64,000 nt of DNA from an uncultured Candidatus Saccharibacteria bacterium (GTDB lineage: Bacteria > Patescibacteriota > WWE3 > UBA101185 > UBA10185), in assembly GCA_964490125.1 (NCBI GenBank), contig CAZBAJ010000001.1, positions 3,573 through 67,572 on the forward strand. Reading direction: 5' to 3'. This document shows, one piece after another, positions 2,519 to 61,050 of this stretch. The translations under genes were made by a program, and so were the position numbers. The first letter of the stretch is position 1; each line of letters opens with the position of its first letter. The notes under the pieces are model-generated. The model did not search any database. It was not told where the DNA came from and worked only from the letters and a program-made list of their open reading frames with translations.

Positions 2519-2554
2519 TTGTTATAAAGTAATCAGTCCTCTATAATCAAGTCA
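2519..2554 (+). promoter_or_regulatory. promoter TTGTTA-17-TATAAT placing TSS at the ATG of the Lon-like gene (leaderless)
   Basis: -35 2519-2524, -10 2542-2547, ATG 2554 (6 nt after -10). Confidence 0.45.
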
Positions 2555-3678
2555 TGCCAGAAATAAAATTAGCTAAGTCCGACAAAAGCGTTATGTTCGA
2601 TAAGTCCATCCTCACAAGTCAGCCACAAAAATTTGAATTTGCAGAACTAGACGCGCTAGCCCAAAAAGTCGCCAAAGTTGAGGGCATGCCAAAAGAGTTA
2701 CGGGAGCGCATAGACAAAATGCTGAATCGGCTTAACCGCATGGCGCAAACCGGTGGTTACGCGGAGCAGTTTGACAATATTTCTCGGTATGTGGACACCG
2801 TGTCGTCAATTCCTTGGGTGGTTACAACTAAAGATCAACTGGACTTGGCAGAAACAAAAAAGTTGTTGGACAAAAATCACTTTGGCATGGAAACTACCAA
2901 AGAAAGAATTTTAGAATATTTGGCGACGATGAAACTGATGCAACGCCAGGGGGAGGACGCGGTGGCGCGCTCGCCAATTTTGCTGTTTGTAGGGCTCCAG
3001 GGTATTGGTAAAACTACTTTGGCAATTTCCATTGCAGAGGCGATGGGTCGCAAGTTTGTGCGTATCGCTATGGGCGCTATAGGTTCCGTTTTGGAGTTGC
3101 GTGGACGAAGTAAAGTGTATCCGGAGGCAGAACCGGGGCAAATTATTAAAGCGCTTATTAAAACCCAAGTGAAAAATCCGCTAATTTTGCTTGACGAAAT
3201 TGAAAAAGCTTCCGGCGAATCGGGTTTGCGGGCTGATGTTATGGCAACGCTTTTGGAAATTTTGGATCCCGCGCAAAACATCGAGTTTAGAGATCATTAT
3301 GTGGACTTTCCCGTCGACCTTAGCGATGTCATGTTTATTTGTTCTGCTAACAATTTAGGTACACTCTCCACCGCGCTTATGGACAGGATGGAGATCATCA
3401 AGCTTACTTCGTACACCGATCCGGAAAAAATTGCTATCGCTAGGGATTATTTATTTCCTAAAGTCGTTGCTAAATCAGGGCTTCAACCGGAGGAGCTTAA
3501 AATTGACCCGGATTTGTGGCCAAATATTGTACGACCATTTGGGTTTGATTCCGGCATTAGAAGTTTAAATCGTACGCTTGACGCTATTTGTAGAAAAGTC
3601 GCCAAAGAGATTGTGGAAGGCAAGTCGACTAGTGTTACTATAAACGCGTCAAACCTAAAGGAATATTTGCCAAAATAG
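2554..3678 (+). CDS. Lon-family AAA+ ATPase module lacking N-terminal LON domain and C-terminal S16 peptidase domain
   Basis: collinear with the Lon central region (ELRERI helical region, Walker A GLQGIGKTTLAISIA, LLDEIEK Walker B, sensor-2 region); only 374 aa and no Ser-Lys peptidase domain. Confidence 0.8.
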   Translation: MPEIKLAKSDKSVMFDKSILTSQPQKFEFAELDALAQKVAKVEGMPKELRERIDKMLNRLNRMAQTGGYAEQFDNISRYVDTVSSIPWVVTTKDQLDLAETKKLLDKNHFGMETTKERILEYLATMKLMQRQGEDAVARSPILLFVGLQGIGKTTLAISIAEAMGRKFVRIAMGAIGSVLELRGRSKVYPEAEPGQIIKALIKTQVKNPLILLDEIEKASGESGLRADVMATLLEILDPAQNIEFRDHYVDFPVDLSDVMFICSANNLGTLSTALMDRMEIIKLTSYTDPEKIAIARDYLFPKVVAKSGLQPEELKIDPDLWPNIVRPFGFDSGIRSLNRTLDAICRKVAKEIVEGKSTSVTINASNLKEYLPK

Positions 3679-3704
3679 GCCCAGGTCGATTGGTAATTAA
3701 ATCA

Positions 3705-4370
3705 ATGGATAAAGAGTTTTTACTTAAAGAAATTGAGAAGAGTATTAAAAGTTGCACCAAGTGTCGACTTTATAAAACCGCCACAAATGCCGTACCCGGT
3801 GAGGGAAATCCCAATAGCCAACTTGTATTTATAGGTGAGGCGCCAGGAGAAACCGAAGATCAAACCGGTCGACCTTTTGTGGGGCGGGCGGGGCGACTTT
3901 TGGAAACCTTACTTGCAAAAATCGGTTACAAGCGGGAAGATGTTTGGATTGGCAATATTATTAAGCACCGCCCGCCCCAAAACCGCGATCCGCTCCCCGA
4001 CGAAATCCTAGCCTGTCAACCTTACCTTGCCGAGCAACTAAAAATCATGTCGCCCAAACTTATTGTTACACTTGGTCGCTTTGCCTTGTCACACTTTTAT
4101 AGTGATGGTAAAATATCCCGTGATAAAGGAAATTTGATTCAAACTGCCAAGTTTAGCGTTTTTCCCGTTTATCACCCGGCGGCTGCTTTAAGAAGTCCAC
4201 AAATGTATAAAGACCTAGAAAACGATTTTTTAAAAATTCCGGCGGTTTTGGCAAATTTAGCCCTTACAAAAAATCTAAAACAGGGTAAACTAAATATGTC
4301 GACAAATTTGGAGAAAGGGAACAAGCAACCGTACGACAACGAGAAAGACGGTCAACAAAGACTTATATAG
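3705..4370 (+). CDS. uracil-DNA glycosylase, family 4
   Basis: CTKCRLYKTATNAVPGEGNPNSQLVFIGEAPGETED...GRAGRLL motif set typical of family-4 UDG; ATG at 3705 preferred over upstream TTG at 3690. Confidence 0.85.
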   Translation: MDKEFLLKEIEKSIKSCTKCRLYKTATNAVPGEGNPNSQLVFIGEAPGETEDQTGRPFVGRAGRLLETLLAKIGYKREDVWIGNIIKHRPPQNRDPLPDEILACQPYLAEQLKIMSPKLIVTLGRFALSHFYSDGKISRDKGNLIQTAKFSVFPVYHPAAALRSPQMYKDLENDFLKIPAVLANLALTKNLKQGKLNMSTNLEKGNKQPYDNEKDGQQRLI

Positions 4371-4372
4371 CT

Positions 4373-6070
4373 ATGCAATTATACGACTCTAATGCCGGCA
4401 AGCCCGCGCTTAAAATAATAACCTTAAGTGGTACAGAAAATGTCACCAAAAATTTAACCGTTTATGATTGTGGCGACGATATTATCGCGGTTGATTGTGG
4501 GATAGGCTTTCCCGATTCCGATATGCGTGGTGTGGATCTAGTTTTGCCGGATTTTACCTATCTAAAAGAAAACTCCCACCGATTTAAAGCGCTGTTTATA
4601 ACCCACGGACATGAGGATCATTTGGGCGCGGTACCTTACCTATTGCAGGAAGTTAATGTACCAATTTATTCGTCCCAACTTGTTTTGGGTTTTCTAACGG
4701 ACAGACTTAAAGAAAAATTTGACGAAAAACTTACCGGCATTTCTCTAAACACGCTTGACCCTACTACCAAAGATGTCCAGATTGGCAATTTTAAGGTGTC
4801 GGCTTTTAGAATTAACCACAGCGTTCCGCGTTCCATGGGTTTAGCTATTACTACGCCTCAAGGCACGGTTTTGCACATGGCGGACTATAAAATTGACTGG
4901 ACGCCGGTATTAGACCAGCCTATTGACCTTGGAAAAATTGCCCGCTACGGGGATGACGGGGTTTTGTGTTTACTGTCTGACTGTTTGGGGGCGACTACGG
5001 AAGGCTACTCAAAGTCGGAACAAACTCTAAACGATACTTTTGGCGATCTTTTTGAAGAAAAAGAAGGCAGGCAAATGCTTATAACCACCATCTCGTCAAA
5101 CATTTCCAGAATGCACCAAATTATTGTCGCTGCGCTAAAGCATAATCGTAAAATCGTTTTAGCAGGTCGGTCCATAGACCAAAGTATGCGGGTTGCTATG
5201 AATTTAGGTTATGTTAATTACGACAAGGATATTTTTGTGTCCGATAAAGACGCGTCAAGCTTTGCCAAAAATGAATTGGTATATATTATTGCCGGCTGTT
5301 ACGGTCAACAGGGTTCCGCGTTGGATAGGGTAGCTCGTAATCAGCACGACAATATACAGTTGCAGAAAGATGCGGTGGTAATTTTTTCCGCTGACCCCAG
5401 TCCGCCAAGTGTAAGAGAAGATGTTGAGCGACTTATTGATACGCTGACTCTTGAAGGCGCGGAGGTTATTTACGGCGCTATTCAGGAAAATTTGCATGTT
5501 TCTGGTCATGGCCCGCGCGGGGATTTAATTACTGTTGCCAGTGTTGCCCGGCCAAAATATTTTATTCCTATTGGCGGAACCGTTTCTAAAATGCGTGCTT
5601 ACACCAACATGGTAGAGGCCTTAGGTTACACAGAAAAATCGGTTTTTGAATCGCGTGAGGGCGAGTCCGTAATCTTTGAAAACGGTCAAGCTAAAAAAGG
5701 TCCCACAATAGAAACAGAGCTTATTATGGTAGGACAAAATGGGGAAGGTGAAATCCACGAAACTGTTGTAAAAGACCGCCAACGACTAGCTAACGACGGT
5801 GTTTTTGTGGTCATTCTGCCGGTGTCCAAAGATAAAAAGAAGTTGGTGGGCAAAGTAGAGGCGGTTACTAGAGGCTTTGTGTTTGTAAAGGAGTCTAAAG
5901 AACTTTTGGACAAGTCGACCCAGTTTGTAACAAAAGCCTTTGAAAAACACATAGCCAAAAGCGACGATTGGGGTCACTTGCGTTTTAAACTAGAGCGGGA
6001 AATCCAACAATATCTCCAAAAAGAAACCGGTGCCACACCATTGGTACTAGTCCACTCGATTGTGGTTTAG
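4373..6070 (+). CDS. rnj: ribonuclease J (metallo-beta-lactamase / beta-CASP)
   Basis: HGHEDHLGAVPYLL metal-binding motif, beta-CASP region, length about 565 aa. Confidence 0.9.
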   Translation: MQLYDSNAGKPALKIITLSGTENVTKNLTVYDCGDDIIAVDCGIGFPDSDMRGVDLVLPDFTYLKENSHRFKALFITHGHEDHLGAVPYLLQEVNVPIYSSQLVLGFLTDRLKEKFDEKLTGISLNTLDPTTKDVQIGNFKVSAFRINHSVPRSMGLAITTPQGTVLHMADYKIDWTPVLDQPIDLGKIARYGDDGVLCLLSDCLGATTEGYSKSEQTLNDTFGDLFEEKEGRQMLITTISSNISRMHQIIVAALKHNRKIVLAGRSIDQSMRVAMNLGYVNYDKDIFVSDKDASSFAKNELVYIIAGCYGQQGSALDRVARNQHDNIQLQKDAVVIFSADPSPPSVREDVERLIDTLTLEGAEVIYGAIQENLHVSGHGPRGDLITVASVARPKYFIPIGGTVSKMRAYTNMVEALGYTEKSVFESREGESVIFENGQAKKGPTIETELIMVGQNGEGEIHETVVKDRQRLANDGVFVVILPVSKDKKKLVGKVEAVTRGFVFVKESKELLDKSTQFVTKAFEKHIAKSDDWGHLRFKLEREIQQYLQKETGATPLVLVHSIVV

Positions 6071-6086
6071 AGTTACTCCCAGAAAA

Positions 6087-6103
6087 TGGTATTATATCCG
6101 TAA
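6087..6103 (+). promoter_or_regulatory. extended -10 TGgTATTAT immediately upstream of ftsK ATG (leaderless candidate)
   Basis: TG 6087-88, TATTAT 6090-6095, ATG 6103. Confidence 0.45.
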
Positions 6104-8367
6104 TGCCTAGAGGACGAAAAAAGTCGTTAAAATTTAAGCTAAAAGCGGATACCTTTAAATCCATTGTAGGGATCTTTTTTATTTTCTTTTCCGCCCTATC
6201 GTATGTGGCGTTTGTTCTGCCCGACTACTCCGTCAACAGTACCATTAACGCCGTTTATCGAAGATTTTTTGGTTACAGCGCGTATTTAATTCCGCTCCTC
6301 TTTTTATTTTCCGGTTTATTATTAGTAGGTTTTAGGTGGCGACTTTTGCAGGCGCGGATTTTTATTGGCATTTTGGCGGTAGCAATTTCGTCGTCCGCCT
6401 TACTGCATGTATTTTATTCCGGCAAAGAGGCGTACAAGGTGGCAGTTAGGGGCGACGGTGGGGGACTTATCGGCTATAAACTTTCTCAAGGGCTTTCCGA
6501 TGCCATTAGCACCTACGGCGCCTTTTTTGTTTTTGGCTTTATTTTGCTTGCCGGTGTGCTACTGCTTAGCGACATTTCCACCGAACGGGTAATTGAGTTT
6601 GTTAATAATCTGGTCGACAAAATAAAAGGTGTTAAAATGCCAAATTTAGGATTAAAGTTGCCCGCTTTAGCCAAAACCGCAATCTCCACCGTACCCGCTA
6701 CTATTATAGAGGCCGACGCAGTGGTTATAAATGAGGAACCAAAATCAGTCGCGTCTAAAGAAGTCGCACAAGAAACAAGCCCAGTGGAGATTTTACCCCC
6801 GCCGTCCGAACCCGCGTCGCAAAAACTAAACGGAGCTTTAATAACAACGGACAAGGGTAAAACGGAGCTTACCACTTTAGCCCCAACGGAAAAAGATCCA
6901 AGCAGTCTGCCTTATTCCAATAAGGTTTGGGAATACCCGCCCCACGACCTGTTGGTAGAAGCGCCTCATACCACCTTTGACACCAACGAAGTCAAACGCC
7001 GACAAAAAACCATAGAGGAAACCCTAAAAAGTTTTGGCATTCGCGTGGATCAGGCAGGCTACAATGTTGGACCAACCGTTACCCAGTACGCCTACAGTGT
7101 TCCGCCAGGCACCCGGATTGCCAAAATTAACAATTTGCAGGTAGATCTTGCCATGGCGCTTGAGTCCCCAACTGGTTCCGTGCGGTTAGAAATTCCTATT
7201 CCCGGGCGCAATGCTATTGGTGTGGAAGTCCCTAATTTAATAAAAAGTTTTGTCTATTTTAAGGATATTTTGGACAGCGACCAAATGAAGGCCATGAAGT
7301 CCAAAATCTCCGTGGGCCTGGGCAAAGATGTTGGTGGTATGGTGCGTACTTACGACATAGCCAAAATGCCTCACTTGTTAGTGGCGGGTGCTACGGGTTC
7401 GGGCAAATCAGTATTTTTGCACTCTATTTTGTTTTCCATTTTGTATCGGGCTAGTCCGCAAGAAGTCAAATTTATTTTAATCGACCCCAAAAGAGTAGAG
7501 CTACTTAATTATAATGGTATTCCACATTTAATTTCCCCGGTCATTACCGACATGGAAAAAGCCCCCAGTGCCTTTAGATGGGCGGTTAACGAGATGACCC
7601 GGAGGTATCAATTGTTTGAAAAAGCCCGCGCCCGCAACATAGACTCCTATAATGAAAAATCGGGTTTTCAGGCGCTACCGCACATTATTATAATGGTAGA
7701 CGAGCTGGCCGACTTAATGGTAGTAGATCCGGCATCGGTGGAGCACAGCATTGTGCGACTAAGTCAGCTTTCCCGCGCTACGGGTATTCATATGATTTTA
7801 ACCGTCCAACGCCCGTCCACAGATATTTTAACAGGTGTTATTAAAGCTAATATTCCTTGTCGCGCTGCGTTTAATGTTACTTCCCAAGTAGACTCGCGGG
7901 TTATTATTGACCAAGCCGGCGCAGAAAAATTAGTGGGTAGAGGGGATATGCTTTTTGTTCCGCCCGATGTCGCAAAGCCTATTAGAATTCAGGGTTGTTG
8001 GATTAGCGATGGGGAAATTGGCAAACTGGTGGACTGGTTAAGAAATACCGGCTTTATTCCGGATTATAAAGAAGAAGTTTTGGATACTCCGGATGAAGAA
8101 AAAAAGTCCGGGGCTACAATAGACGGTAAAGAGGTAGACGAAAGATACGAAGAAGCTAAAGATGTGGTTATAACTACCGGCAAAGCGTCCACCTCCTTTT
8201 TACAACGCCGGCTGTCTCTTGGTTACGCTAGGGCTGCCAGAATTATGGATCAACTTCAGGAAAATGGCGTAATTTCCGCGCAGGAAGCGGGTAGAGATCG
8301 CCAAGTTTTAATATCGTCAAACGGAAATAACAGGGATTTAGATTTTATTGACAATCTACCCGAGTAA
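6103..8367 (+). CDS. ftsK: DNA translocase FtsK/SpoIIIE
   Basis: N-terminal TM helices, GATGSGKSVFLHSIL Walker A, C-terminal gamma (wHTH) domain. Confidence 0.9.
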   Translation: MPRGRKKSLKFKLKADTFKSIVGIFFIFFSALSYVAFVLPDYSVNSTINAVYRRFFGYSAYLIPLLFLFSGLLLVGFRWRLLQARIFIGILAVAISSSALLHVFYSGKEAYKVAVRGDGGGLIGYKLSQGLSDAISTYGAFFVFGFILLAGVLLLSDISTERVIEFVNNLVDKIKGVKMPNLGLKLPALAKTAISTVPATIIEADAVVINEEPKSVASKEVAQETSPVEILPPPSEPASQKLNGALITTDKGKTELTTLAPTEKDPSSLPYSNKVWEYPPHDLLVEAPHTTFDTNEVKRRQKTIEETLKSFGIRVDQAGYNVGPTVTQYAYSVPPGTRIAKINNLQVDLAMALESPTGSVRLEIPIPGRNAIGVEVPNLIKSFVYFKDILDSDQMKAMKSKISVGLGKDVGGMVRTYDIAKMPHLLVAGATGSGKSVFLHSILFSILYRASPQEVKFILIDPKRVELLNYNGIPHLISPVITDMEKAPSAFRWAVNEMTRRYQLFEKARARNIDSYNEKSGFQALPHIIIMVDELADLMVVDPASVEHSIVRLSQLSRATGIHMILTVQRPSTDILTGVIKANIPCRAAFNVTSQVDSRVIIDQAGAEKLVGRGDMLFVPPDVAKPIRIQGCWISDGEIGKLVDWLRNTGFIPDYKEEVLDTPDEEKKSGATIDGKEVDERYEEAKDVVITTGKASTSFLQRRLSLGYARAARIMDQLQENGVISAQEAGRDRQVLISSNGNNRDLDFIDNLPE

Positions 8368-8389
8368 TGAAATACTCAAACTACTGCCT

Positions 8390-9124: not shown

Positions 9125-9180
9125 GAGTGGGTATTTCTAATTTTTATTTTATCAGTACATATTCCAAGACAGCTTTTCAG

Positions 9181-9197
9181 TGTGTATAATGTTCCCA
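9181..9197 (+). promoter_or_regulatory. TGTGTATAAT -10 element 6 nt upstream of AKR ATG (leaderless candidate)
   Basis: TATAAT 9185-9190, ATG 9197. Confidence 0.45.
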
Positions 9198-10066
9198 TGG
9201 AAATACCTACAAAGAAATTGAAGTGTGGTTTTGAAATGCCTGTTTACGGTTTGGGAACTTGGCAGATGGGCGGAAGAAAGGAAGCCGATCCACTAAACGA
9301 CGATAAAGCCGACATCGATGCGATTAGATACGCAATAGATCGTGGGGTTACCCACTTGGATACGGCAGAAAATTACGCAGCGGGTCATTCGGAAGAATTG
9401 TTGGGGCAGGCAATAAAGGGTTACGACCGTGATAAATTGTTTATTGTTTCCAAAGTCGGTAGAACAAAACTTAAACACAACGATTTAATCCAGTCAGCTG
9501 AAGAAAGTTTAAAGAGAATAGGTACTGCTTACCTCGATCTTTTTTTGATCCACGCGCCTAGTTTGGAAATACCCATTCAGGAAAGTATGAAAGCTATGAA
9601 TGAGTTGTTAAAAAGAGGCTTGGTTAGAAATATCGGCGTGAGCAATTTTACTGTAGAAAGATTTGTCGAAGCCCAAAAATGTTCCGAGTCTAAGATTGTA
9701 GCTAACCAGCTACATTTAAACCTTAAATATAGGGAAGCGGAAAGAAAGGGACTGTTGAGATATTGTCAGGAAAACGATGTTATGTTTATTGCGTGGAGAC
9801 CTTTGCAGAAGGGGGTTCTTTTAGCTGAAACGCCCGCTATTTTGAAGGATATGTGCGACAAATACAATAAAACACCAAGTCAGATAGCCATAAATTGGCT
9901 AATTAGCCAGAACAATGTTGTGACTTTATCTAAGACAAGAGATAAAAGTCATCTGGACGAGAATCTTGGAGCTTTTGGTTGGGAGATGGATAAATCCGAT
10001 GTTGAGAAATTAAGGACGGAGTTTCCGAATCAAGAGGATGTTTCCGACGCCGTCCCTCTGGTTTAG
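9197..10066 (+). CDS. aldo/keto reductase
   Basis: YGLGTW...G...HLDTAENY AKR signature; ATG at 9197 (ORF-track GTG at 9182 lies inside the -10 box). Confidence 0.85.
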   Translation: MEIPTKKLKCGFEMPVYGLGTWQMGGRKEADPLNDDKADIDAIRYAIDRGVTHLDTAENYAAGHSEELLGQAIKGYDRDKLFIVSKVGRTKLKHNDLIQSAEESLKRIGTAYLDLFLIHAPSLEIPIQESMKAMNELLKRGLVRNIGVSNFTVERFVEAQKCSESKIVANQLHLNLKYREAERKGLLRYCQENDVMFIAWRPLQKGVLLAETPAILKDMCDKYNKTPSQIAINWLISQNNVVTLSKTRDKSHLDENLGAFGWEMDKSDVEKLRTEFPNQEDVSDAVPLV

Positions 10067-10196
10067 TACCCCACCCTTTTGGCACTTTCTGGTTTTTTGT
10101 CCAGCTGTTAACGCCGTTACAACAAGGTTAAACGCCCCTCTGGACAAATATAAAATTGGACTTTACATTTGTCCAAGTAAGGTATAAACTGCCAGT

Positions 10197-11336
10197 ATGA
10201 TAGCAAGAACCTTAGCTAAAGAACTTATAAACAAAGCAGAGAAGTACCCGGTGATTTCTGTAACAGGACCCAGACAGTCAGGCAAAACAACGCTAATTAA
10301 AAGCCTGTATCCGGGTTATTTGTATGCCAATTTAGAATATCCCGACATTAGGGAATTTGCCAAAACAGATCCCAGAAGATTTTTAAATCAGGCTAAAACC
10401 ATGATTGTGGACGAAGTGCAGTATGTACCTGATTTACTTGCATACATGCAGGGAAATGTAGATGAGGACAAAGACAGACAGTATGTAATTTCCGGCTCCC
10501 AGAACCTATTACTTTCCGCAAAAGTCTCCGAGTCTCTTGCCGGTAGGGTGTTTGTAGCCAACCTGTTGCCACTTACGCTAAACGAGTTAGCAAGCGTGAA
10601 CCTAACTGAACCCGATTTAGTGTCCCAGTTATTTAAAGGTTTCTACCCCAAGATTTACGACGAAAATTTGGACCCAGTGATGTGGTATCGAAATTATATT
10701 TTGACTTATTTGGAACGCGATGTTAGGGACATAAAGACTGTGGATAGCTTGTCCTCGTTTAGAAATTTTATGGCTTTGTTGGCAGGTAGAACGGGGCAGA
10801 TTTTGAACATGGCTTCATTAGCAAGCGACGCTGGAATAAGTGCACCCACAGCAAAAGCGTGGATTTCTATACTGGAGGCAAGTTACATAATTAGGATACT
10901 TCCGCCATATTATAACAATTGGAATAAGAGGGTAGTTAAAGCACCCAAAGTCCATTTTGTTGATACCGGATTAGTATGCGCTCTGCTTGGCATAAAAAGC
11001 ACCGTAGAATTGGCACACCACCCGCTAATCGGAAGTATTTTTGAATCCTATGTATTTTCTGAATATGTAAAACGAAAAGCCAATTTTGAACTAACCGCCG
11101 ATCTATATTTTTGGAAAGACAAATCTAATAAAGAGGTTGATATATTGTTGGAAGCTGGAAATATAACAGAAGCTATTGAAGTAAAATACGGTCAGACCAT
11201 AGCTTTGGAATATTTTGCTAACCTAGAAAGTTATAGATTTTTATCCGAGACGCCTGTGAAGACCAGCGTTGTGTACGGCGGGCAGGGAATACACGAACGA
11301 GGCAACCATGTAGTTTGCGGGTGGCGGGAATTTTAG
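10197..11336 (+). CDS. AAA+ ATPase with DUF4143-type C-terminal domain (COG1373 family)
   Basis: Walker A GPRQSGKTTL near N-terminus, architecture of the widespread ATPase/DUF4143 family. Confidence 0.8.
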   Translation: MIARTLAKELINKAEKYPVISVTGPRQSGKTTLIKSLYPGYLYANLEYPDIREFAKTDPRRFLNQAKTMIVDEVQYVPDLLAYMQGNVDEDKDRQYVISGSQNLLLSAKVSESLAGRVFVANLLPLTLNELASVNLTEPDLVSQLFKGFYPKIYDENLDPVMWYRNYILTYLERDVRDIKTVDSLSSFRNFMALLAGRTGQILNMASLASDAGISAPTAKAWISILEASYIIRILPPYYNNWNKRVVKAPKVHFVDTGLVCALLGIKSTVELAHHPLIGSIFESYVFSEYVKRKANFELTADLYFWKDKSNKEVDILLEAGNITEAIEVKYGQTIALEYFANLESYRFLSETPVKTSVVYGGQGIHERGNHVVCGWREF

Positions 11337-11372
11337 AGGCGCCTTAATTTGTTTTCATGCTATTATTAAAAA

Positions 11373-12005
11373 ATGCCGTTATTCAATAAATCCGTTACTT
11401 CCATTGGCGGGGATGCTAAAGCCGACAGTACTAAAAAGCAGGACCAAAGCGGGAAGAGCTTTTTTTTGGAAATGATGGAAACTTTGGTTAGCTCCGTCAT
11501 TGTTATTCTTGTTATTTACTCTACAGTCGCCTTTCCGGAAATGGTGGTGGGTTCTAGTATGGAACCCAATTTTTACACCGGCGAGCGGATTTTGGTGGAA
11601 AAAGTCACGCGGTTTTTTAAGTCGTACAAAAGAGGCGACATTGTTGTACTTCACCCGCCCGGAAATGATAATATAGACTACATCAAGCGGATTGTGGGTA
11701 TGCCCGGGGATGTGGTAAAAATTGTGGACTGTAAGGTATACATAAAATCCGGTGAGGAAAGTTTTTTGTACGAGGAAGATTATTTGTCCGACGGGATTTG
11801 TACCATAGGTGGGGTTAAAATAAAGGATGGGCGGTCGTTTAAGATTGAAGACGGCAATTATTTGGTTTTAGGTGACAACCGCGAGAAATCTTTGGACTCG
11901 CGGGCGTTTGGGTTGGTACCCAAAGAGAGGATTTTAGGCAAGGTGGTTTACAGGTTTTGGCCACCTGCAAAAGCGGGTTTTGTTAATGTTGACAGCAAAA
12001 ATTAA
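11373..12005 (+). CDS. lepB: signal peptidase I
   Basis: GSSMEPNF (Ser box), YIKRIVGMPGD, GDNREKSLDSR boxes. Confidence 0.85.
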   Translation: MPLFNKSVTSIGGDAKADSTKKQDQSGKSFFLEMMETLVSSVIVILVIYSTVAFPEMVVGSSMEPNFYTGERILVEKVTRFFKSYKRGDIVVLHPPGNDNIDYIKRIVGMPGDVVKIVDCKVYIKSGEESFLYEEDYLSDGICTIGGVKIKDGRSFKIEDGNYLVLGDNREKSLDSRAFGLVPKERILGKVVYRFWPPAKAGFVNVDSKN

Positions 12006-49000: not shown

Positions 49001-49022
49001 TGTTTATTATATAATTACGACT

Positions 49023-49580
49023 ATGGGGGACGAAGCCATGAATACAAAAAACTATATTGAGGAACTTAGAGCAGAAATCGACCAAATCCCCAACGAATCC
49101 ATGCGACTTTGTATGCGGGATTATTTACAAGCGCGGGAGCAAACCAGAGATATTCTAGCATTGGTTCCGGAGGATTTGTTGGACTATAAAGTTGCGCCAG
49201 GTGAAGAAGTCCAATCCCTTAGGGAAAATTTTGCAGAACTTGCACGCGTGGAAGCTAGTTTAATTAGAGGTTTACAAAGTGGACGAAGGGTACACAGTGG
49301 CGGTCACAATGTCCTGCCCGAACTACCCAAGAAAGAAGAGATTTTAAACGCTTATGAAAAATTGGATCGTGAAATGTTTACTTTGCTAAAAAATCCAGCC
49401 TTTGATCCCAAAGATACCTTTATTTATGCTGGAGAAAATGGAACCGAGCAAACTCTTAGGAAAGGCGGATCAGTTTGGTATTTCTTTTATCACGAAATGA
49501 AGGAATTGGGGTCAATAAGGGCAAAGCTGGATGGTGTTGGAATAGAACCGCCAGAATCCTACAAAAAGGCTTGGGGTTAA
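49023..49580 (+). CDS. hypothetical protein (possibly DinB/helical-bundle-like)
   Basis: ORF directly after Clp-like gene; ATG 49023; no confident family assignment. Confidence 0.45.
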   Translation: MGDEAMNTKNYIEELRAEIDQIPNESMRLCMRDYLQAREQTRDILALVPEDLLDYKVAPGEEVQSLRENFAELARVEASLIRGLQSGRRVHSGGHNVLPELPKKEEILNAYEKLDREMFTLLKNPAFDPKDTFIYAGENGTEQTLRKGGSVWYFFYHEMKELGSIRAKLDGVGIEPPESYKKAWG

Positions 49581-50470: not shown

Positions 50471-50507
50471 GGGTGAATATTACAACCGAAAAATTTTAAT
50501 TACAACT

Positions 50508-51305
50508 TCATTCAATCGGTAAGAAAATCTCAAAAACTTGTTGGGTTGTGTCTGCGTTTACTTTCCAATATATTTCAAAGTCGGAAACTTTATTTTTCAC
50601 TTTGATTCTGTTGATCCTGCAATATTTTTCCAACTCTTTCCAAAACAGTGAAAGCATTTCTCCAGCACCACTGTGTTTATAAGAAATCACCTTTCCTGGG
50701 CTAAAGGTCATATGTCGTACAACATTCTTAAACTCCGGTTTTATGGCGATATCTTTGTCACTAAAAACGCATATTTTAATGTGGCAATTTTTTGGACGAT
50801 AGCCCTGATCCTCAAAAACAGCCATTGTGGTTAAACCGTCGTGAGGTTTTTCGATCATATTTATTAGCTCGCTACAATACATGCCGATTTTTGAGTAGGC
50901 GCCTATTTTGTCGATGTAGTAAACGCTAAGAGGTTGAAATACCGAAATTTTAGGTTTGATCATGGTCCGATTTGTTTTAAGATTTTCCAAGAAATTATCA
51001 ATATTTTTTAAGTTAAATTCTAGAGTACTCATTTCCTTTAGTATTGTCGGGCGTTTTTCCTTAAATAGTTCAACCAATTTTCCATGATTATTTAGATACT
51101 CCTTTATTTCTTTTAGAGAAATACCTAGCGTTGTGAGTAGTAAAACCATCTGATAATCTAAAATCTGTCTTTGGGAATAATACCGAAACCCCCGCAAGTC
51201 GATCCTTTCCGGTTTTAGGACACCTTTTTGGTCGTAGAATAAAATCGTTCGTTTTGTTGTACAGGCGAGTTTTGCGAACTCGCCCGGTGTTATAAAAGCG
51301 TCCAT
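50508..51305 (-). CDS. MerR-family transcriptional regulator with C-terminal GyrI-like effector-binding domain (BmrR-like)
   Basis: N-terminal MerR HTH (ITPGEFAKLACTTKRTILFYDQKGVL), long coiled linker, about 150-aa C-terminal domain of GyrI-like size. Confidence 0.8.
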   Translation of the reverse strand: MDAFITPGEFAKLACTTKRTILFYDQKGVLKPERIDLRGFRYYSQRQILDYQMVLLLTTLGISLKEIKEYLNNHGKLVELFKEKRPTILKEMSTLEFNLKNIDNFLENLKTNRTMIKPKISVFQPLSVYYIDKIGAYSKIGMYCSELINMIEKPHDGLTTMAVFEDQGYRPKNCHIKICVFSDKDIAIKPEFKNVVRHMTFSPGKVISYKHSGAGEMLSLFWKELEKYCRINRIKVKNKVSDFEIYWKVNADTTQQVFEIFLPIE

Positions 51306-51307
51306 AC

Positions 51308-51345
51308 TTGACTATAACCTCGCGTTACACCTTATTATAGCATCC
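51308..51345 (+). promoter_or_regulatory. MerR-type promoter for the UvrA paralog: TTGACT - 19 bp - TATTAT
   Basis: TTGACT 51308-51313, TATTAT 51333-51338, 19-bp spacer, ATG at 51349; divergent MerR gene starts at 51305. Confidence 0.55.
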
Positions 51346-51348
51346 ATT

Positions 51349-53607
51349 ATGTCTAATATAGTTATAAAAGGAGCGCGCGAGCACAACCTTAAAGGTGTTG
51401 ATATAACGATACCTCGCAACAAGGTTGTGTGTTTTGTGGGTGTGTCGGGTAGCGGAAAGTCCACAATTGCCTTCGATATCGTCGCAAAAGAGGGGCAAAG
51501 GCAATATTTTGAAAGTTTGTCGGCTTATGCCCGCAGGTACTTGCAAAAGAGCAATCGTCCTGATATTGACGATATCAAGGGAATATCTTCCACAGTTATT
51601 ATTAGTCAAGACAGGCTTACCAAGAATCCGCGTTCGACTGTTGGTACTGTGACTGAAACTTACACCTACCTTAGGTTGTTGTACTCTAGAGTAGGTTGGC
51701 CTCCAATGGACTCTTCCAACTATTCGTTTAATCATCCCGACGGTTTTTGTCCAAGATGTAAGGGTCTAGGTAGGGCCATGGATGTGGACATAAATAAATT
51801 AGTCGATGTGAGTTTATCTCTTAACGAGGGGGCTATAAAATATAGCAACTGGCGAGTGAATAGTATGTATTGGAAGATTGTTAGAGAAAGCGGATATTTT
51901 GATATGGACAAAAAGCTTAAAGATTTTAGTGAAAGCGAAATGAACAAGTTGCTCTATTCCAAGAAAGAGACACTGGATGACAGGGTAGGAAACGGTGTAA
52001 TCCACCCAACCTATAAGGGTATAGTAACTCATCTGCTCGGGCGTGGTTCTAGTGCAGTTAGAAGTGTAAACGATGAGGAACTAAGCTATTTTAGTTATAT
52101 AGATTGCCCTTTGTGTCACGGTTGGAGAATAAGTCAAAAAGCTTTGGAGGTTAAGTTAAATGGATTGAATATCGGCGAAGTCGGTAATTTGCCTATCTAC
52201 GATTGTCTAAGTTTTGTGCAAAGTATTAAGCACCCGCATGCCGATGTAATTAAGCCCAGACTGGAACTCCAACTCCAGCATTTAATAAACGTGGGTGTAG
52301 GGTATTTATCACTAAACAGGACTACGGATACTCTGTCGGGTGGAGAGTCGCAAAGAATAAAAATGGCAAGACAGCTCGGTTCCGACTTGACAGAGACAAT
52401 TTATGTTTTGGACGAGCCAACTGCGGGTCTGCATCCTCGCGATGTCGACAAGGTTATTGAGAACTTAAGAAAATTAAAGGACGGCGGAAACACTGTTTTA
52501 ATAGTTGAGCATGATCCGGAGGTTATAAAGTCGGCTGACTACATCATTGAAGTTGGACCTGGCGGTGGAAAAAAGGGTGGAAACATTGTTGCAACGGGTT
52601 CTTTAACCGAGATTAAAGCCAATCCAACATCTATAACAGCCAAGTACATAAATGGCAGTGACAAGATACGGTTGCCTGAAGAATATAGAGAAAGAAACGG
52701 TAATATAAGTATTGCAAATGCTTCAACCCACAACCTAAAAAATATAAGCGTTGACATTCCGACAGGCGTGTTGGTGGCGTTAACCGGTGTTTCAGGTAGT
52801 GGGAAGAGCTCGTTGGTGGAGGAAATTTGTAGGCAGTACCAGCACAAAGTCACGCTTGTTGATCAGAGCGCTGTGGGTGCTAACCAAAGAGGCTGTATTG
52901 CTACCTATACGGGAACCTTTGACATTATCAGAAAGCTCTTTGCTCAAGAAAATAAAGTCAGCGTTAGTTTATTTAGCTACAACAGTAGCGGTGCTTGTGA
53001 AGACTGCAAAGGTTTAGGTCATATGGATGTTGATATGAATTTTTTAGGTGACATCAAGATTAAGTGTCCCAAGTGTAATGGGAAAAGGTATAAGCAGGAA
53101 GTATTGAAGTATTTATATAAAGGTAAGAGCATAGATCGGGTTTTAGAAAGTACAGTTGAGGAAGCGCTAGAGTTTTTTGATCAAAAAGAAATAAAAGTTA
53201 AGCTTGCAATGTTGGCAGAAGTCGGACTAGATTATATAGAAATTGGTCAGTCTTTGGACACCTTATCGGGCGGGGAATCTCAAAGATTAAAGTTAGCCAG
53301 TCGTTTGCAAGCAAAGGGTGAGTTTTATATCTTGGACGAGCCCACTTCCGGCCTTCACCTTGCTGATGTAGAAAAGTTACTCAAACTTTTGAATCGCCTG
53401 GTTGACAATGGGAACACTGTTTTGGTAGTCGAGCATAATTTAAAGATTATTGTGTCCAGCGATTGGGTTATCGATTTAGGACCCGATGGTGGCGATAAAG
53501 GCGGGGAACTGATCGTCCAAGGAACACCAAAAGATATTTTAAGTTGTGACCAGTCGTATACCGCAAAGTATTTAAGGGGAACGGTAAGTTTGGAAAATAA
53601 AGCTTAA
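51349..53607 (+). CDS. UvrA paralog (class II, short; DrrC/UvrA2-like)
   Basis: two ABC ATPase modules (GVSGSGKST twice), four CxxC zinc modules, ABC signature LSGGESQR twice; 752 aa, lacking UvrB-binding/insertion domains. Confidence 0.85.
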   Translation: MSNIVIKGAREHNLKGVDITIPRNKVVCFVGVSGSGKSTIAFDIVAKEGQRQYFESLSAYARRYLQKSNRPDIDDIKGISSTVIISQDRLTKNPRSTVGTVTETYTYLRLLYSRVGWPPMDSSNYSFNHPDGFCPRCKGLGRAMDVDINKLVDVSLSLNEGAIKYSNWRVNSMYWKIVRESGYFDMDKKLKDFSESEMNKLLYSKKETLDDRVGNGVIHPTYKGIVTHLLGRGSSAVRSVNDEELSYFSYIDCPLCHGWRISQKALEVKLNGLNIGEVGNLPIYDCLSFVQSIKHPHADVIKPRLELQLQHLINVGVGYLSLNRTTDTLSGGESQRIKMARQLGSDLTETIYVLDEPTAGLHPRDVDKVIENLRKLKDGGNTVLIVEHDPEVIKSADYIIEVGPGGGKKGGNIVATGSLTEIKANPTSITAKYINGSDKIRLPEEYRERNGNISIANASTHNLKNISVDIPTGVLVALTGVSGSGKSSLVEEICRQYQHKVTLVDQSAVGANQRGCIATYTGTFDIIRKLFAQENKVSVSLFSYNSSGACEDCKGLGHMDVDMNFLGDIKIKCPKCNGKRYKQEVLKYLYKGKSIDRVLESTVEEALEFFDQKEIKVKLAMLAEVGLDYIEIGQSLDTLSGGESQRLKLASRLQAKGEFYILDEPTSGLHLADVEKLLKLLNRLVDNGNTVLVVEHNLKIIVSSDWVIDLGPDGGDKGGELIVQGTPKDILSCDQSYTAKYLRGTVSLENKA

Positions 53608-55408: not shown

Positions 55409-55601
55409 AAATGCTCAGAAGTGTTCAGGTCATACTATCAATATTTGTCCAAAAGTCAATACATATTTATTGTTAGGTACCCATTTATTCGGGCGACTTG
55501 TGAACTAATGCCCTTTCCTTCAATTCAAATAAACGCCTTTCTCTAAACCGTTTTAGTACTATTTTAATGCGCTATATCCCTAGTCGTACTATAATACCCA
55601 C

Positions 55602-56777
55602 ATGTTAATAGAACTCTCCCCCGACCAAGATCTTGCCCGCAAGTTTATTATGGATTGGTACAACTCAAAAAGTCGCCCGCCGTACATTACTTTGGGAGGC
55701 TATGCGGGCACGGGCAAGACCACGCTCATTACTTATTTACGGCGCCAGCTCAAAGTCGACCATAAAAAGCTAAAAGTGGCGTTTTGTGCTTATACGGGCA
55801 AGGCCACGCAGGTTTTAAAACGCAAGCTGGCGGAGCATAACGCTGTGCATTTTGGCGACGAAGTGCGGACGATCCACTCGCTTATTTACAAAGCTATAAC
55901 GGACGAACATGGGTTTATTATTGGTTGGCGACGGCGGGACAGCCTGGACACGGAGCCTAATTTACTAATTGTAGACGAAGCAAGTATGGTTGATCAGGAA
56001 ATTTGGCAGGACTTACTTTCTTACCATGTACCTATTATAGCGGTGGGCGACCATGGTCAGCTTCCCCCCGTGTCGGGTGACTTTAACTTAATGCAAAACC
56101 CGCACTTGAAGTTGGAAAAAATCCATCGCCAGGCGGAGGAAAATCCAATTATTAAACTTTCTGTTATAGCACGGGAAACCGGTTTGATACCGCACGGTGA
56201 CTACGGCGACCATGTTTTTAAAGCAACGCCTGCTGATGCGTCCACCATGCTAGAAAACATTTTTTGTAACTTTTCTTCCGACCAGTTAGTTTTATGCGGT
56301 TATAATTCAACCAGGGTTAAGCTAAACGCCACAATAAGGAACGCCTTGGGTTTTGAAACGCCGGAACCGTACCCGGGTGACAGAGTGATTTGTCTGCGCA
56401 ACAATAGGCAAAAAGAGGTTTACAACGGGATGTTGGGGTACCTAGAGTATATTAATAGGCTGTCTAAAAATAAATACCTAATTGAGGTCGCCATGGATTC
56501 TTATGAAGAAGGTCATACCTATTCCGGAGTTGTTTCCGCGGAGCAGTTTGGCGCGCAAAAAACACTAAATAACATTTTAGGGTACGCAAAAACTAAGGAG
56601 ATGGACTTGTTTGACTTTGGGTACGCGCTTACAGTTCACAAAGCGCAGGGGAGTCAGGCAAAAAAGGTGGTGGTGTTTGAGGAGCGCTTTTCCCGCGACA
56701 CTGAAGAGGACTGGCGCCGTTGGCTGTACACCGCTGTCACCCGCGCGGAGGAGGAACTTTTAATTGTAGGGAATTAA
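55602..56777 (+). CDS. RecD/Dda-like SF1B DNA helicase
   Basis: GGYAGTGKTTL Walker A, LLIVDEASMV Walker B, C-terminal ...VTRAEEELLIV. Confidence 0.8.
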   Translation: MLIELSPDQDLARKFIMDWYNSKSRPPYITLGGYAGTGKTTLITYLRRQLKVDHKKLKVAFCAYTGKATQVLKRKLAEHNAVHFGDEVRTIHSLIYKAITDEHGFIIGWRRRDSLDTEPNLLIVDEASMVDQEIWQDLLSYHVPIIAVGDHGQLPPVSGDFNLMQNPHLKLEKIHRQAEENPIIKLSVIARETGLIPHGDYGDHVFKATPADASTMLENIFCNFSSDQLVLCGYNSTRVKLNATIRNALGFETPEPYPGDRVICLRNNRQKEVYNGMLGYLEYINRLSKNKYLIEVAMDSYEEGHTYSGVVSAEQFGAQKTLNNILGYAKTKEMDLFDFGYALTVHKAQGSQAKKVVVFEERFSRDTEEDWRRWLYTAVTRAEEELLIVGN

Positions 56778-57339: not shown

Positions 57340-57801
57340 TTGGTCTATAATAAGGCTATGGAAAGTTTAGTCGACGAATTAAGGTTGGCGCGAACGGCTG
57401 TTATTGAGGCAGTTTCTAAAGTCGCCAGGAATAAACGAGAGGTTGTGTTTTTAGGCGACTGGACATTAAAGGATTTAATCGCGCATTTGACGGGCTGGGC
57501 TAATTATCAGCTTGAGGTTATTAAAGATGTCCAAACAGGCAGGATTCCCAAAGAACCCGGAAGTATTGACGGGTTTAATGAAAAATCTACTAGAAAAAGG
57601 GCGACGCAGTCTTGGGAAAAAACATATTCAGAATTTTTGGACGCTAGCCAAAAACTTATCGACACCTATCAGAAGTTACCAAACGATTTGTGGGATACCT
57701 TGCTTTGGGAAGACAAAAAGACGACTTTGAAAAAGTTTATTAATATTGAGATACGACATTACAAGAAAACACATTTGCCACAAATTTTAAAACTGGTATA
57801 G
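57340..57801 (+). CDS. ClbS/DfsB-family (DUF1706) four-helix-bundle protein
   Basis: WTLKDLIAHLTGW matches the W[ST][VL]KD[VL][IL]AHL..W hallmark of ClbS-like proteins. Confidence 0.6.
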   Translation: MVYNKAMESLVDELRLARTAVIEAVSKVARNKREVVFLGDWTLKDLIAHLTGWANYQLEVIKDVQTGRIPKEPGSIDGFNEKSTRKRATQSWEKTYSEFLDASQKLIDTYQKLPNDLWDTLLWEDKKTTLKKFINIEIRHYKKTHLPQILKLV

Positions 57802-57820: not shown

Positions 57821-58492
57821 TTACTTCAGTATGTATTGGGATTTAACACTATAAACGCAATAAGGTTTCCAGTTAATTTTTAAAACGCAAAGATCGATTT
57901 CAGGCCATTTATTTTCCAGCTTGATAATTTCCCTTTCGTCAAGCCAAATACATTTTTGGAGCTTCATTTTGTCCTTTTGGTTAATCGTAATCGAAGTTTT
58001 ATAAACTCCAAAAGCGTCGTCAAATATAGTATCACCGCTTTTTGTAATAACCGTTTTCATATGTAAAGAGTCGAATGTAAAATCTGTATAAGGGATATGT
58101 AAACCTGTTTCGTCGTAGAAAATTCTGGGCAAGGCATCTTCCAGGCTTTCTCCAAATAACGGCGAGCCACTTGGTAAATTGTAGAAGGTCTGCTGGTTGC
58201 TTTCATGGGGTTTGATCAGAAAATCCTCGCCGCAACTACAAACAAAGCCTACAAAGAACATTTTAAAAGCATCGTCCTTTAGATCCGTTTTTTGAAAAGT
58301 AGACAGAGTGGTTAACCCTTTAGCCGTAATAAAATACTTGTCGTTGTGTTTTTCCACCAAGTCACCTGATATCAGTCGTTTTAAATGAAAAACAATATTG
58401 TCCTCGGCATCGTAGCCACGCGCTAGAGAAGAGAATGTCCGTCCATTTTCGTCGACTAGTCTTTTGATCAGCAGTTTCTGGAGTGTGTGCAT
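57821..58492 (-). CDS. NUDIX hydrolase with N-terminal winged-helix domain
   Basis: Nudix box GSPLFGESLEDALPRIFYDETGL (Gx5Ex7R...ExG); N-terminal 70 aa wHTH-like. Confidence 0.7.
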   Translation of the reverse strand: MHTLQKLLIKRLVDENGRTFSSLARGYDAEDNIVFHLKRLISGDLVEKHNDKYFITAKGLTTLSTFQKTDLKDDAFKMFFVGFVCSCGEDFLIKPHESNQQTFYNLPSGSPLFGESLEDALPRIFYDETGLHIPYTDFTFDSLHMKTVITKSGDTIFDDAFGVYKTSITINQKDKMKLQKCIWLDEREIIKLENKWPEIDLCVLKINWKPYCVYSVKSQYILK

Positions 58493-58571
58493 AAGTGTAG
58501 TTTACTACACTAGAAGGCAGGTTGCGGACAGTATACAATTGCCGTACTAGTAAGATAGAGAGGAGGATACC

Positions 58572-59923: not shown

Positions 59924-59976
59924 AAGTCACACAAAAACAACTAAACCCCCGTAAATTAGAGTTCTAGCCTTATTTC

Positions 59977-59992
59977 TGGTACATTACCCCTA
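59977..59992 (+). promoter_or_regulatory. extended -10 TGgTACATT 6 nt upstream of prfB ATG (leaderless candidate)
   Basis: TG 59977-78, TACATT 59980-85, ATG 59992. Confidence 0.4.
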
Positions 59993-60996
59993 TGGAAGAC
60001 TTGCACGAGCGCCTTACAACGCTTAGAAAAAAACTAAATATTGAGGCAAAAAAGGATGAAATCTCCGCGCTAAAAGAAAAGATGCAGGACGACTCGGTTT
60101 GGCAGGACTGGGAAAAAGGTCAAAAACTTTCTAAGGAGCTTTCTGACTTGCAAAAAGAGGTGGAGGATTTTGAGATGCTGGAGCTTGTTGCGCAAGAGGA
60201 AAATCTCGAGGAATTTGAAAAAGCTTTATGGGAATTGGAAAAAAAGACTTATTTAAGTATGCCGTACGACAAAAGCGGGGCAATTCTTTCTATTCACGCG
60301 GGTCAGGGCGGGACGGAGGCCATGGACTGGACGGAAATGTTGTACAGAATGTACACGCGGTTTTGCGACAATAAAAATTGGAAGCATGAAATTTTGGCAA
60401 TGACGCCGGGTGACGAGGCGGGTTATAAATCGGTAAGTATAGAAATTGACGGTAAATATGTGTACGGGTTTTTAAAAAACGAGTCGGGGGTGCATCGGCT
60501 GGTACGACAGTCGCCCTTTAATGCCAATGACCTGCGTCAAACCTCTTTTGCTCTAGTAGAGGTAATTCCGTTGGTAGACGATTCAATTGCGGATATAGAA
60601 ATTAAGGAGGACGATTTGGAGTGGGATTTTTTTAGAGCAGGCGGACACGGTGGCCAAAATGTTAACAAAGTTTCCACGGCTGTGCGACTTAAACACAAAC
60701 CAACGGGCATTATTATAGAAAACCAAACGGAGCGTTATCAGGGGAAAAATCGGGAAAAGGCGTTGCAGGTATTAAAGTCTAAATTGTACGCACTGCAGTT
60801 GGAGGAAGCTAAAAAGGAAGAAAGAAAAATGAAGGGGGATTATAAAGTACCGGGTTGGGGCAATCAAATCCGTAATTATATTTTACATCCTTACAAGCTA
60901 GTTAAGGATTTACGGACAGATTTAGAATCAACGAATCCGGAGAAAGTTTTGGACGGGGAATTGGATGAGTTTATAGATGCAGAGTTGAAGCTTTAG
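59992..60996 (+). CDS. prfB: peptide chain release factor 2, single uninterrupted ORF
   Basis: SPF tripeptide (QSPFNAND), GGQ motif ([18 protein letters not shown]). Confidence 0.9.
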
Positions 60997-61036
60997 GAAT
61001 TTTTCCAAAAACTATAGACAAATTTTGTACTCAATA

Positions 61037-61050
61037 TATAATAGTCGATA
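61037..61050 (+). promoter_or_regulatory. TATAAT 7 nt upstream of DUF3048 gene ATG (leaderless candidate)
   Basis: TATAAT 61037-61042, ATG 61050. Confidence 0.4.

Follow-up and report, generated by a model that had tools for sequence, protein, structure and literature searches.

Do genes in the 64 kb stretch of contig CAZBAJ010000001.1 analyzed here (hereafter the window; ~42% GC), from an uncultured bacterium that we assign below to the candidate division WWE3, begin directly at their own promoters, with no leader between the transcription start and the start codon? The question was raised by a sequence-only reading of this DNA, which had listed nine genes in which a TATAAT-like -10 box ends 6-7 nt before the ATG and had proposed widespread leaderless translation initiation for non-ribosomal genes. 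We found that these boxes are locked in position to the start codon, are restricted to genes preceded by a gap, carry the features of promoters, and keep their geometry in orthologues. The proposal of widespread leaderless initiation is thus supported at the level of sequence, except that the genes concerned are better described as the first genes of transcription units than as non-ribosomal. Judged from the sequences, leaderless-type organization would apply to about a third to half of the transcription-unit-first genes of this WWE3 bacterium and its relatives.

Box geometry and operon position in the window

A total of 73 gene starts of the window were scored for boxes. The gene list is provisional, with first ATGs taken as starts, and d denotes the number of bases that separate the last T of the -10 hexamer from the A of the ATG. 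The sites are given below by coordinates and strand, followed by the start of rpoC as a representative of the contrasting class led by a Shine-Dalgarno (SD) sequence; entries marked "additional" had not been listed by the sequence-only reading.

2519..2556 (+): Lon-like AAA+ gene promoter; -35 TTGTTA 2519-2524, -10 TATAAT 2542-2547, ATG 2554, d=6
6066..6105 (+): ftsK promoter; -35-like TTTAGA, extended -10 TGgTATTAT (-10 at 6090-6095), ATG 6103, d=7
9162..9199 (+): aldo-keto reductase (AKR) gene promoter; -10 TATAAT 9185-9190, ATG 9197, d=6; GTG 9182 is 5' of the box
10162..10199 (+): DUF4143/AAA_14 ATPase gene promoter; -35 TTTACA 10162-10167, -10 TAAACT 10185-10190, ATG 10197, d=6
11358..11375 (+): signal peptidase I gene promoter, additional; extended -10 TGcTATTAT (-10 at 11361-11366), ATG 11373, d=6
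33674..33691 (+): first DNA methyltransferase gene; -10 TATAAT 33674-33679, ATG 33689, d=9; predicted leader ~2-3 nt, near-leaderless
37360..37399 (+): MazF/PemK-like gene promoter; -35 TTGAAA, extended -10 TGgTATATT (37383-37388), ATG 37397, d=8; TTG 37379 is 5' of the box
42748..42785 (+): HelD-like helicase gene promoter; -10 TATACT 42770-42775, ATG 42783, d=7; stop codon immediately upstream (42780)
46430..46447 (+): ClpB-like ATPase gene promoter, additional; extended -10 TGgTATGCT (46433-46438), ATG 46445, d=6; within the 3' end of the SipW-like open reading frame (ORF)
49010..49025 (+): DinB-family gene, additional; -10 TATAAT 49010-49015, ATG 49023, d=7
50468..50505 (-): transglutaminase-like gene, additional; -35 TTGTAA, -10 TAATAT/AATATT 50476-50482, ATG 50470, d=5-6
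51303..51351 (both strands, ambiguous): divergent spacer of 43 nt between a MerR-family gene (ATG 51305, -) and uvrA2 (ATG 51349, +)
55590..55604 (+): RecD/PIF1-like helicase gene, additional; -10 TATAAT 55590-55595, ATG 55602, d=6
57346..57360 (+): DinB/DUF1706-like gene, additional; -10 TATAAT 57346-57351, ATG 57358, d=6; TTG 57340 is 5' of the box
58490..58504 (-): winged-helix gene, additional; weak -10 TAAACT 58499-58504, ATG 58492, d=6
59957..59994 (+): promoter of prfB (RF2, without frameshift site); extended -10 TGgTACATT (59980-59985), ATG 59992, d=6
61015..61052 (+): DUF3048 gene promoter; -35 TAGACA 61015-61020, 16-nt spacer with conserved TGTACTCAAT, -10 TATAAT 61037-61042, ATG 61050, d=7
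15326..15346 (+): rpoC start, SD contrast class; SD GGAGGAGG, overlapping the rpoB stop and kept in orthologues

Pfam and NCBIfam agree with the identities of the nine genes of the sequence-only reading. All nine have a -10-like box, and in seven of them it lies at the claimed distance of 6-7 nt; the exceptions are the MazF-like gene (d=8) and the first methyltransferase gene (d=9). The count of at least nine was too low, since clear boxes also precede the genes at 11373, 46445, 49023, 50470(-), 55602, 57358 and 58492(-). Weaker or near-leaderless cases are found at 37888, 38649, 51305(-) and 51349, and a TG extension is present at eight window sites. At the DUF4143 gene, where the -35 TTTACA stands at 17 nt, TATAAA at d=8 is an alternative -10. 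On the plus strand of the divergent spacer, uvrA2 has TTGACT-19-TATTAT at d=10, with a predicted leader of ~3-4 nt, in agreement with the short leader claimed for it; on the minus strand, the MerR-family gene has either TATAGT at d=5 or TGcTATAAT with a ~18-nt leader containing GAGG. Leaders of 1-4 nt are more likely for uvrA2 and for the genes at 33689 and 37397, as judged from the positions of their boxes.

We defined a strict hexamer as one with at least 5/6 matches to TATAAT, including A2 and T6. Strict hexamers are located at d=6/7 before 10 of the 73 window starts, compared with 1.6 expected from shuffled 40-nt upstream regions (maximum 8 in 2000 trials) and 1.35 at other offsets in the same upstream sequences (p ~8e-6). 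Before other ATGs of the window, the frequency of a strict box is 0.67% (n=1507). A looser rule takes in ~17-19 of the 39 window genes that have an upstream spacer of at least 20 nt, and the leaderless-type share of these gapped genes ranges from 14/39 (d=6/7, at least 4/6 matches) to 19/39 (d=5-10).

Box and SD core, the latter defined as GGAG, GAGG or AGGA at -18 to -4, are nearly mutually exclusive in the window and are sorted by operon context. A box precedes 18 of 39 genes with a gap of at least 20 nt versus 3 of 33 with a shorter gap (Fisher p=6e-4), whereas an SD core precedes 6/39 gapped genes versus 19/33 tightly packed genes (p=4e-4). Further SD-led genes are rpsL at 19031 (GGAGG), rpoA at 40437 (AAGGAGG), the YtxH-like gene at 8660, the TasA-like gene at 45293 (AAGGAGGTG) and a glyoxalase gene at 58572. 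The classic SD sequences reported earlier for tuf, rpsL, rpoA and the TasA-like gene are thus present, that of tuf being weaker (AAAGGA). The label "TasA-like" has a neighbouring SipW-type signal peptidase as its sole support; neither Pfam nor NCBIfam gave a match for this protein.

Promoter features and conservation among relatives

The nearest homologues of the DUF3048 protein and of FtsK (50-91% identity) are named candidate division WWE3 or Patescibacteria group, and we place the organism in WWE3 (Katanobacteria). The gene for uL30 is absent between those for uS5 and uL15, such that the S5 gene (31167) is followed directly by the L15 gene (31708); a missing L30 is a candidate phyla radiation (CPR) hallmark (PMC9297842).

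The same scan was extended to relatives of this organism, in the form of 80 loci that total 1.2 Mb and come from species-representative genomes with a gene for a DUF3048 orthologue; WWE3 accounts for nearly all of them. In these loci 989 genes were called as non-overlapping ORFs of at least 100 codons with the first ATG as start, a deliberately naive rule. Strict boxes precede 10.0% of the genes at d=6 and 6.7% at d=7, with a secondary enrichment at d=8-9 (3.5% each), compared with ~0.6% of other ATGs. The enrichment is 17-fold at d=6. By contrast, the identical pipeline gave a flat profile for 100 kb of E. coli K-12 that include ribosomal protein clusters, with a box at d=6-9 before 1/92 genes versus 12/66 in the window. 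The view that -10 hexamers at this distance exceed the background thus holds in the relatives, and E. coli has no such excess. Operon context again separates the two signals: boxes occur before 32-42% of genes with upstream gaps of 10-100 nt versus 6-7% of those with gaps under 10 nt, SD sequences before 39% of overlapping genes versus 3% at gaps of 25-50 nt, and no gene in the 80 loci carries both.

Because the loci share neighbouring genes, we grouped their proteins into 239 families. With one count per family, 21.5% are leaderless-type (37/176 among singleton families), and the big families are internally consistent, the pattern being present in 22/25, 21/38 and 37/73 members of some and in 0/23, 0/14 and 0/13 of others. 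The ten most distant loci (35-41% identity) show it in 28.7% of genes; for a Roizmanbacteria locus the count is 8 of 20 genes, and for another distant locus 8 of 14. On this sequence evidence, the predicted architecture is common to WWE3 and at least some other Patescibacteria.

The boxes themselves resemble promoters. For this comparison, 165 boxes associated with starts were aligned by their hexamers, with 13,715 further strict hexamers from these loci serving as controls; the TG extension and the -35 element played no part in the selection of boxes. A TG extension one base upstream of the hexamer was found in 39% of the start-associated boxes versus 4.7% of the controls (~8-fold), and a -35 element with at least 5/6 matches at 16-18 nt was found in 15% versus 1.7%. 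T is enriched at -5 and -3 as well, giving a TRTG-like pattern. A promoter-first test took the opposite direction, with 749 TGn-extended boxes collected on both strands independently of gene calls. An ATG follows these sites in 61 cases at d=6 and in 50 cases at d=7, versus ~10 at other offsets, and 93 of these 111 ATGs (84%) open ORFs of at least 60 codons, versus 3/22 at d=2-3. GTG and TTG showed no enrichment at d=6/7 downstream of the 749 sites. Since the transcription start sites of 49 bacteria cluster around a position ~7 bp past the -10 element (PMC12641261), we infer that at d=6 the A of the ATG is the predicted first transcribed base.

The same geometry is conserved at single genes. 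In 38 species the DUF3048 promoter (TAGACA, 16-18 nt, TATAAT) can be recognized; 31 of these have an in-frame ATG at d=6-8, namely 25 at d=6 and 6 at d=7-8. The 25 promoters with d=6 have 21 different discriminators; therefore it is the distance, and not the sequence, that is conserved. At this gene the first-ATG rule often misplaces the start, because an in-frame ATG is located inside the promoter spacer. For prfB, a -10 lies at d=5-9 in 16 of 19 orthologues, many with a TG extension, and TGnTATnnT precedes the ClpB-like gene in 12 of 13 orthologues, mostly at d=6 (range 6-9). Six syntenic ftsK loci were obtained via FtsK homologues at 52-91% identity; an FtsK scan of metagenomes yielded three distant loci only, which were left unused. 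Counting the window together with its six orthologues, TGnTAnnAT precedes ftsK at d=7-8 in 7/7, and TGnTATTAT precedes the signal peptidase gene at d=6 in 5/7. For the Lon-like gene, the window and its five orthologues all keep the -10 (6/6), which lies at d=6 in five sequences, one with a GTG start, and at d=9 in the sixth, and the DUF4143 orthologue in locus L092 has TTGACA-17-TAATAT-6-ATG. The orthologues of rpoC and of the YtxH-like gene retain GGAGG SD sequences.

Two further observations concern these conserved sites. GTG is rare at the leaderless position, and replaces the ATG of orthologues in TATAAT-GAGCTT-GTG (L092 733, Lon-like) and TATAAT-AAAAAG-GTG (L039, DUF3048). In the DUF3048 promoter, the spacer segment TGTACTCAAT is, like the -35 and -10 elements, nearly base-for-base identical in ~40 WWE3 species (L001-L070). 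Within it is the inverted repeat ACAAA-T-TTTGT, and the window has just a single copy of the complete motif, whose appearance suggests an operator or else a spacer under unusual constraint.

The claim that this geometry can pin down start codons is upheld most clearly by ftsK (gene 6103-8367). A public record of a 100% identical FtsK (P0122, 673 aa) starts at TTG 6346, behind AGGTGG. This start removes 81 N-terminal residues, beginning MPRGRKKSLKFKLK and including part of the four-transmembrane region, and the N-terminus MPRGRKK is conserved from the promoter-adjacent ATG in 13 orthologues. The start in the public record is probably an SD-biased call. The upstream starts GTG 9182 (AKR gene), TTG 37379 (MazF-like gene) and TTG 57340 all lie 5' of the -10 and would therefore be outside a transcript from the box promoter. 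For the DinB/DUF1706-like gene at 57358, the call in a related strain is 147 aa, in agreement with the ATG start; sequencing runs SRR8925812 and SRR11845629 have yielded assemblies of related strains.

Predicted leaderless initiation, its alternatives and known systems

We consider it highly probable, from the sequence data above, that sigma-70-type promoters of this lineage fire at or near the AUG, that leaderless mRNAs are read by direct recognition of the 5'-AUG, and that SD sequences serve internal genes and a minority of first genes. In such a mechanism, housekeeping sigma-70-type promoters, many with an extended -10 (TGnTATAAT) and a weak -35, would have the A of the ATG as the purine 7 nt past the -10 box, and RNA polymerase would initiate at, or no more than ~3 nt from, the start codon. 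The resulting mRNAs would have neither a 5' untranslated region nor an SD sequence and would be translated by recognizing the 5'-terminal AUG directly, with canonical GGAGG-type SD sequences used by operon-internal genes and by the minority of first genes that have a leader (genes of the ribosome and of translation, the TasA-like gene). We infer this mode of translation initiation, like the position of the transcription start, from the geometry of the sites and the statistics on it, together with their promoter features and their conservation in evolution.

Several observations weigh against this mechanism. The sites at 33689, 37397, 38649 and 51349 lie at d=8-12, with probable leaders of 1-6 nt, and at some sites (10197, 58492, 59992) the -10 box is weak and matches at 4/6 positions. 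Roughly one gapped gene in three has neither an SD sequence nor a box (pnp 246, rpoB 12069, rpsG 19534, 62348 and others), and additional initiation modes must therefore exist. The naive first-ATG rule underlies all locus gene calls. In addition, a generic -35/-10 promoter/terminator scan of 44-64 kb found no excess, with 39 sites versus 35.7 expected. The DUF3048 promoter ranked first among the two-hexamer sites of that scan, and the lack of excess indicates that the signal rests on position and not on promoter strength.

The generic scan, being no higher than shuffles, is also what would be expected if the boxes were a compositional coincidence, in which AT-rich spacers and nearby stop codons yield TATAAT-like hexamers near ATGs with no functional link to them. 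The genome has 42% GC with AT-rich spacers, and loose hexamers are frequent, at 2-3% for any offset. We give this explanation virtually no weight, however, because the peak is sharp and confined to d=6-7, shuffles gave 1.6 boxes where 10 were seen, no peak appears in the E. coli control, TG extensions are enriched 8-fold, and orthologues with diverged discriminators hold the distance. It is also very improbable that the hexamer is a translation signal rather than a promoter, namely a non-SD motif on leadered mRNAs of the Bacteroidetes type ("group B"). In support of such a role, the distance from motif to start is the same as that of a ribosome-binding site, as remarked for M. tuberculosis (PMC6028130), and with ~1/3 of gapped genes lacking an SD sequence some non-SD mechanism must exist. 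But group B motifs by definition also precede operon-internal genes (PMC6028130), whereas here the motif falls to 6-7% at gaps below 10 nt, where GGAGG-type SD sequences are found instead. The TGn extensions and the -35 at 16-18 nt are contacts of RNA polymerase and not of the ribosome, and the hexamer is dominated by A2 and T6, like sigma-70 -10 elements.

A third alternative accepts the promoters as real but lets many transcripts begin a few nucleotides 5' of the ATG, or lets translation use a different start codon, so that leaders would be very short or starts would lie further downstream. By convention, mycobacterial studies of transcription start sites class a leader of 5 nt or less as leaderless. 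The four window sites at d=8-12 and the secondary enrichment at d=8-9 in the loci would fit this arrangement, and start-site choice shifts by 1-2 nt in all bacteria (PMC12641261). The mode, however, is exactly d=6, as in 25/38 DUF3048 promoters, the enrichment at d=6/7 is specific to ATGs, which open long ORFs, and the N-terminal conservation of ftsK favours the promoter-adjacent ATG. Very short leaders are thus viable for the d=8-12 subset only, and as a general account they are unlikely.

Initiation at the AUG itself has well-described counterparts. In published work, leaderless genes are recognized by a Pribnow box 6-8 nt before the start codon, and genomes of GeneMarkS-2 group C, which is typical of Actinobacteria (90%) and Deinococcus-Thermus (97%), have this box at operon-first genes, SD sequences on the rest, and 25-50% leaderless operons (PMC6028130). 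The WWE3 sequences match group C members such as Mycobacterium, Streptomyces, Corynebacterium and Deinococcus-Thermus in box position, restriction to operon-first genes, internal SD sequences and predicted leaderless share. They differ in lineage and composition, the known cases being high-GC Actinobacteria or Deinococcus, whereas WWE3 has 42% GC and a genome below 1 Mb. They differ further in that the promoters often have an extended -10 (39% with TG) and in that the leaderless start is essentially only ATG. Mycobacteria often use GTG starts. In E. coli and its phages, leaderless mRNAs such as lambda cI from PRM and Tn1721 tetR, in which a 5'-AUG mRNA is translated without an SD sequence, are rare exceptions in E. 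coli; their strong AUG requirement agrees with the ATG-only enrichment in the WWE3 loci. Extended -10 sigma-70/SigA promoters of E. coli and Gram-positives likewise have TG at -15/-14, enrichment of T at -17, a weak or absent -35 and, where a -35 is present, a spacer of 16-18 nt. Unlike that class, the WWE3 element is position-locked to the start codon, with the discriminator doubling as the entire "leader". Archaeal leaderless transcripts ("group D") also differ from WWE3, with a TATA box ~26 nt upstream (PMC6028130) as opposed to a -10 box at 6-8 nt.

No report of leaderless genes in CPR emerged from a full-text literature search, which did not extend to the GeneMarkS-2 supplementary tables, where CPR genomes might be listed; its hits either cited GeneMarkS-2 or YchF and no more, or used "leaderless" in connection with secretion. 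The nearest papers are one on CPR ribosomes, which notes that some Parcubacteria have lost the anti-SD (PMC9297842), and a survey of promoters in which start sites of TM7x are included (PMC12641261). This appears to be a well-characterized architecture in a lineage apparently without an earlier description of it, and the NCBI pipeline may already model such genomes as leaderless, unremarked.

Whether leaderless initiation from extended -10 promoters is the default for transcription-unit-first genes throughout WWE3, and probably in the wider CPR/Patescibacteria, is a generalization from these sequences that we offer only tentatively, leaning slightly against it. If true, the Actinobacteria and Deinococcus-Thermus would be joined as major leaderless lineages by a large radiation that is uncultured and has reduced ribosomes, and the debate over ancestral leaderless initiation would gain a deep-branching, ribosome-reduced lineage. 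Leaderless translation requires neither the anti-SD interaction nor protein bS1; it is a matter of speculation that this independence is relevant to the trimmed CPR ribosome. There would also be practical consequences. Almost no CPR bacteria have been cultured, and automatic callers supply their gene models; callers trained on SD sequences would systematically misplace starts in the metagenome-assembled genomes of CPR, an example being the 81 codons cut from ftsK. If at least a third of transcription units are leaderless, the promoter box would fix the start codon and improve N-termini, signal peptides and protein families, and TGnTATAAT-N6-ATG would be a usable promoter model for a lineage without genetics.

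Other features of the window

Overall, the window holds pnp, the Lon-like AAA+ gene, UDG, RNase J, ftsK and rpoB/rpoC, ribosomal protein genes in the str/S10/spc/alpha clusters, and a block of repair/stress genes. Rfam and tRNA scans of the window gave no matches. Exact-sequence look-up of the HelD-like and EF-Tu proteins matched no record, and a scan of the genome collection with the HelD-like protein found no relatives. A minus-strand ORF at 8497-9114 was rejected as spurious; the plus-strand YtxH-like gene and a small transmembrane-protein gene are the real ones there.

The small transmembrane-protein gene (8390-8659) falls below the 100-aa ORF cut-off. Its promoter (8347-8392), which is of the leadered kind and is conserved in 7/7 including the window (L089-L094), consists of TTGACA-17-TGaAATACT followed by 13 nt ending in ACTGCCT, which abuts the ATG; the predicted leader is ~7 nt, ACUGCCU. 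ACTGCC also occurs upstream of the DUF4143 ATG (10197). Similarly, a CTGCC(C) pentamer is located 15-22 nt 5' of the ATG in 59 of 77 regions orthologous to that of gene 62348, an ArsR/PaaX-like winged-helix gene downstream of DUF3048 that has no SD sequence and a leaderless box in only 10/76; in the window the pentamer has the degenerate form CTGCT. We also discarded the idea of a conserved hairpin 5' of 62348, as the 77 orthologous regions show no consistent structure. CTGCC was also dismissed as a general non-SD initiation signal: its enrichment before ORF-opening ATGs comes almost entirely from two families and, after family de-duplication, is not clearly above control pentamers.

Upstream of rpoB (12006-12068; L089, L091, L094), where neither an SD sequence nor a -10 box is present, there is a conserved terminator-like hairpin, GCACG...CGTGC plus a T-tract, that ends ~15 nt 5' of the ATG. 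It resembles the E. coli rplL-rpoB attenuator, but here it is located after a signal peptidase gene. At the DUF4143 promoter, the -35 is enclosed by an inverted repeat with two perfect 10-bp arms, TTGGACAAAT...ATTTGTCCAA, separated by a loop of 17 nt (~10141-10177); this repeat may serve as an operator, or it may terminate transcription of the AKR gene upstream. The AKR and DUF4143 genes are both missing at the corresponding position in 5/6 syntenic relatives, which suggests that the pair is a variable insertion.

A restriction-modification island (33689-37846) lies within the ribosomal protein superoperon, between secY/YbaB-like and adk, and comprises genes for an N6/N4 methyltransferase (33689), a BsaWI-like endonuclease (34970), an unknown protein (35670) and a second methyltransferase (36071). 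The GC content falls to 37% across 32-36 kb. The MazF/PemK-like toxin gene is situated between adk and map, with no obvious antitoxin. A programmed +1 frameshift leader of prfB occurs in many bacteria; here prfB (59992-60996) is one uninterrupted ORF of 334 aa, and its 69-nt upstream spacer is too small for such a leader.

The ClpB-like gene (46445-49000) and the SipW-like signal peptidase ORF (46003-46554) overlap, with the start of the former lying 110 nt within the 3' end of the latter; the overlap seems real because the N-terminus and the extended -10 box of the ClpB-like gene are conserved in orthologues. The ClpB-like protein has an unusually long N-terminal region, with its first AAA domain beginning at residue 326. 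Finally, the -10 boxes of the divergent spacer (51306-51348) overlap face to face, with TGCTATAAT on the minus strand complementing TATTATAGCA on the plus strand. This arrangement, between a MerR/GyrI-like regulator and a uvrA2-like gene, fits a putative MerR-type control of the divergent gene.

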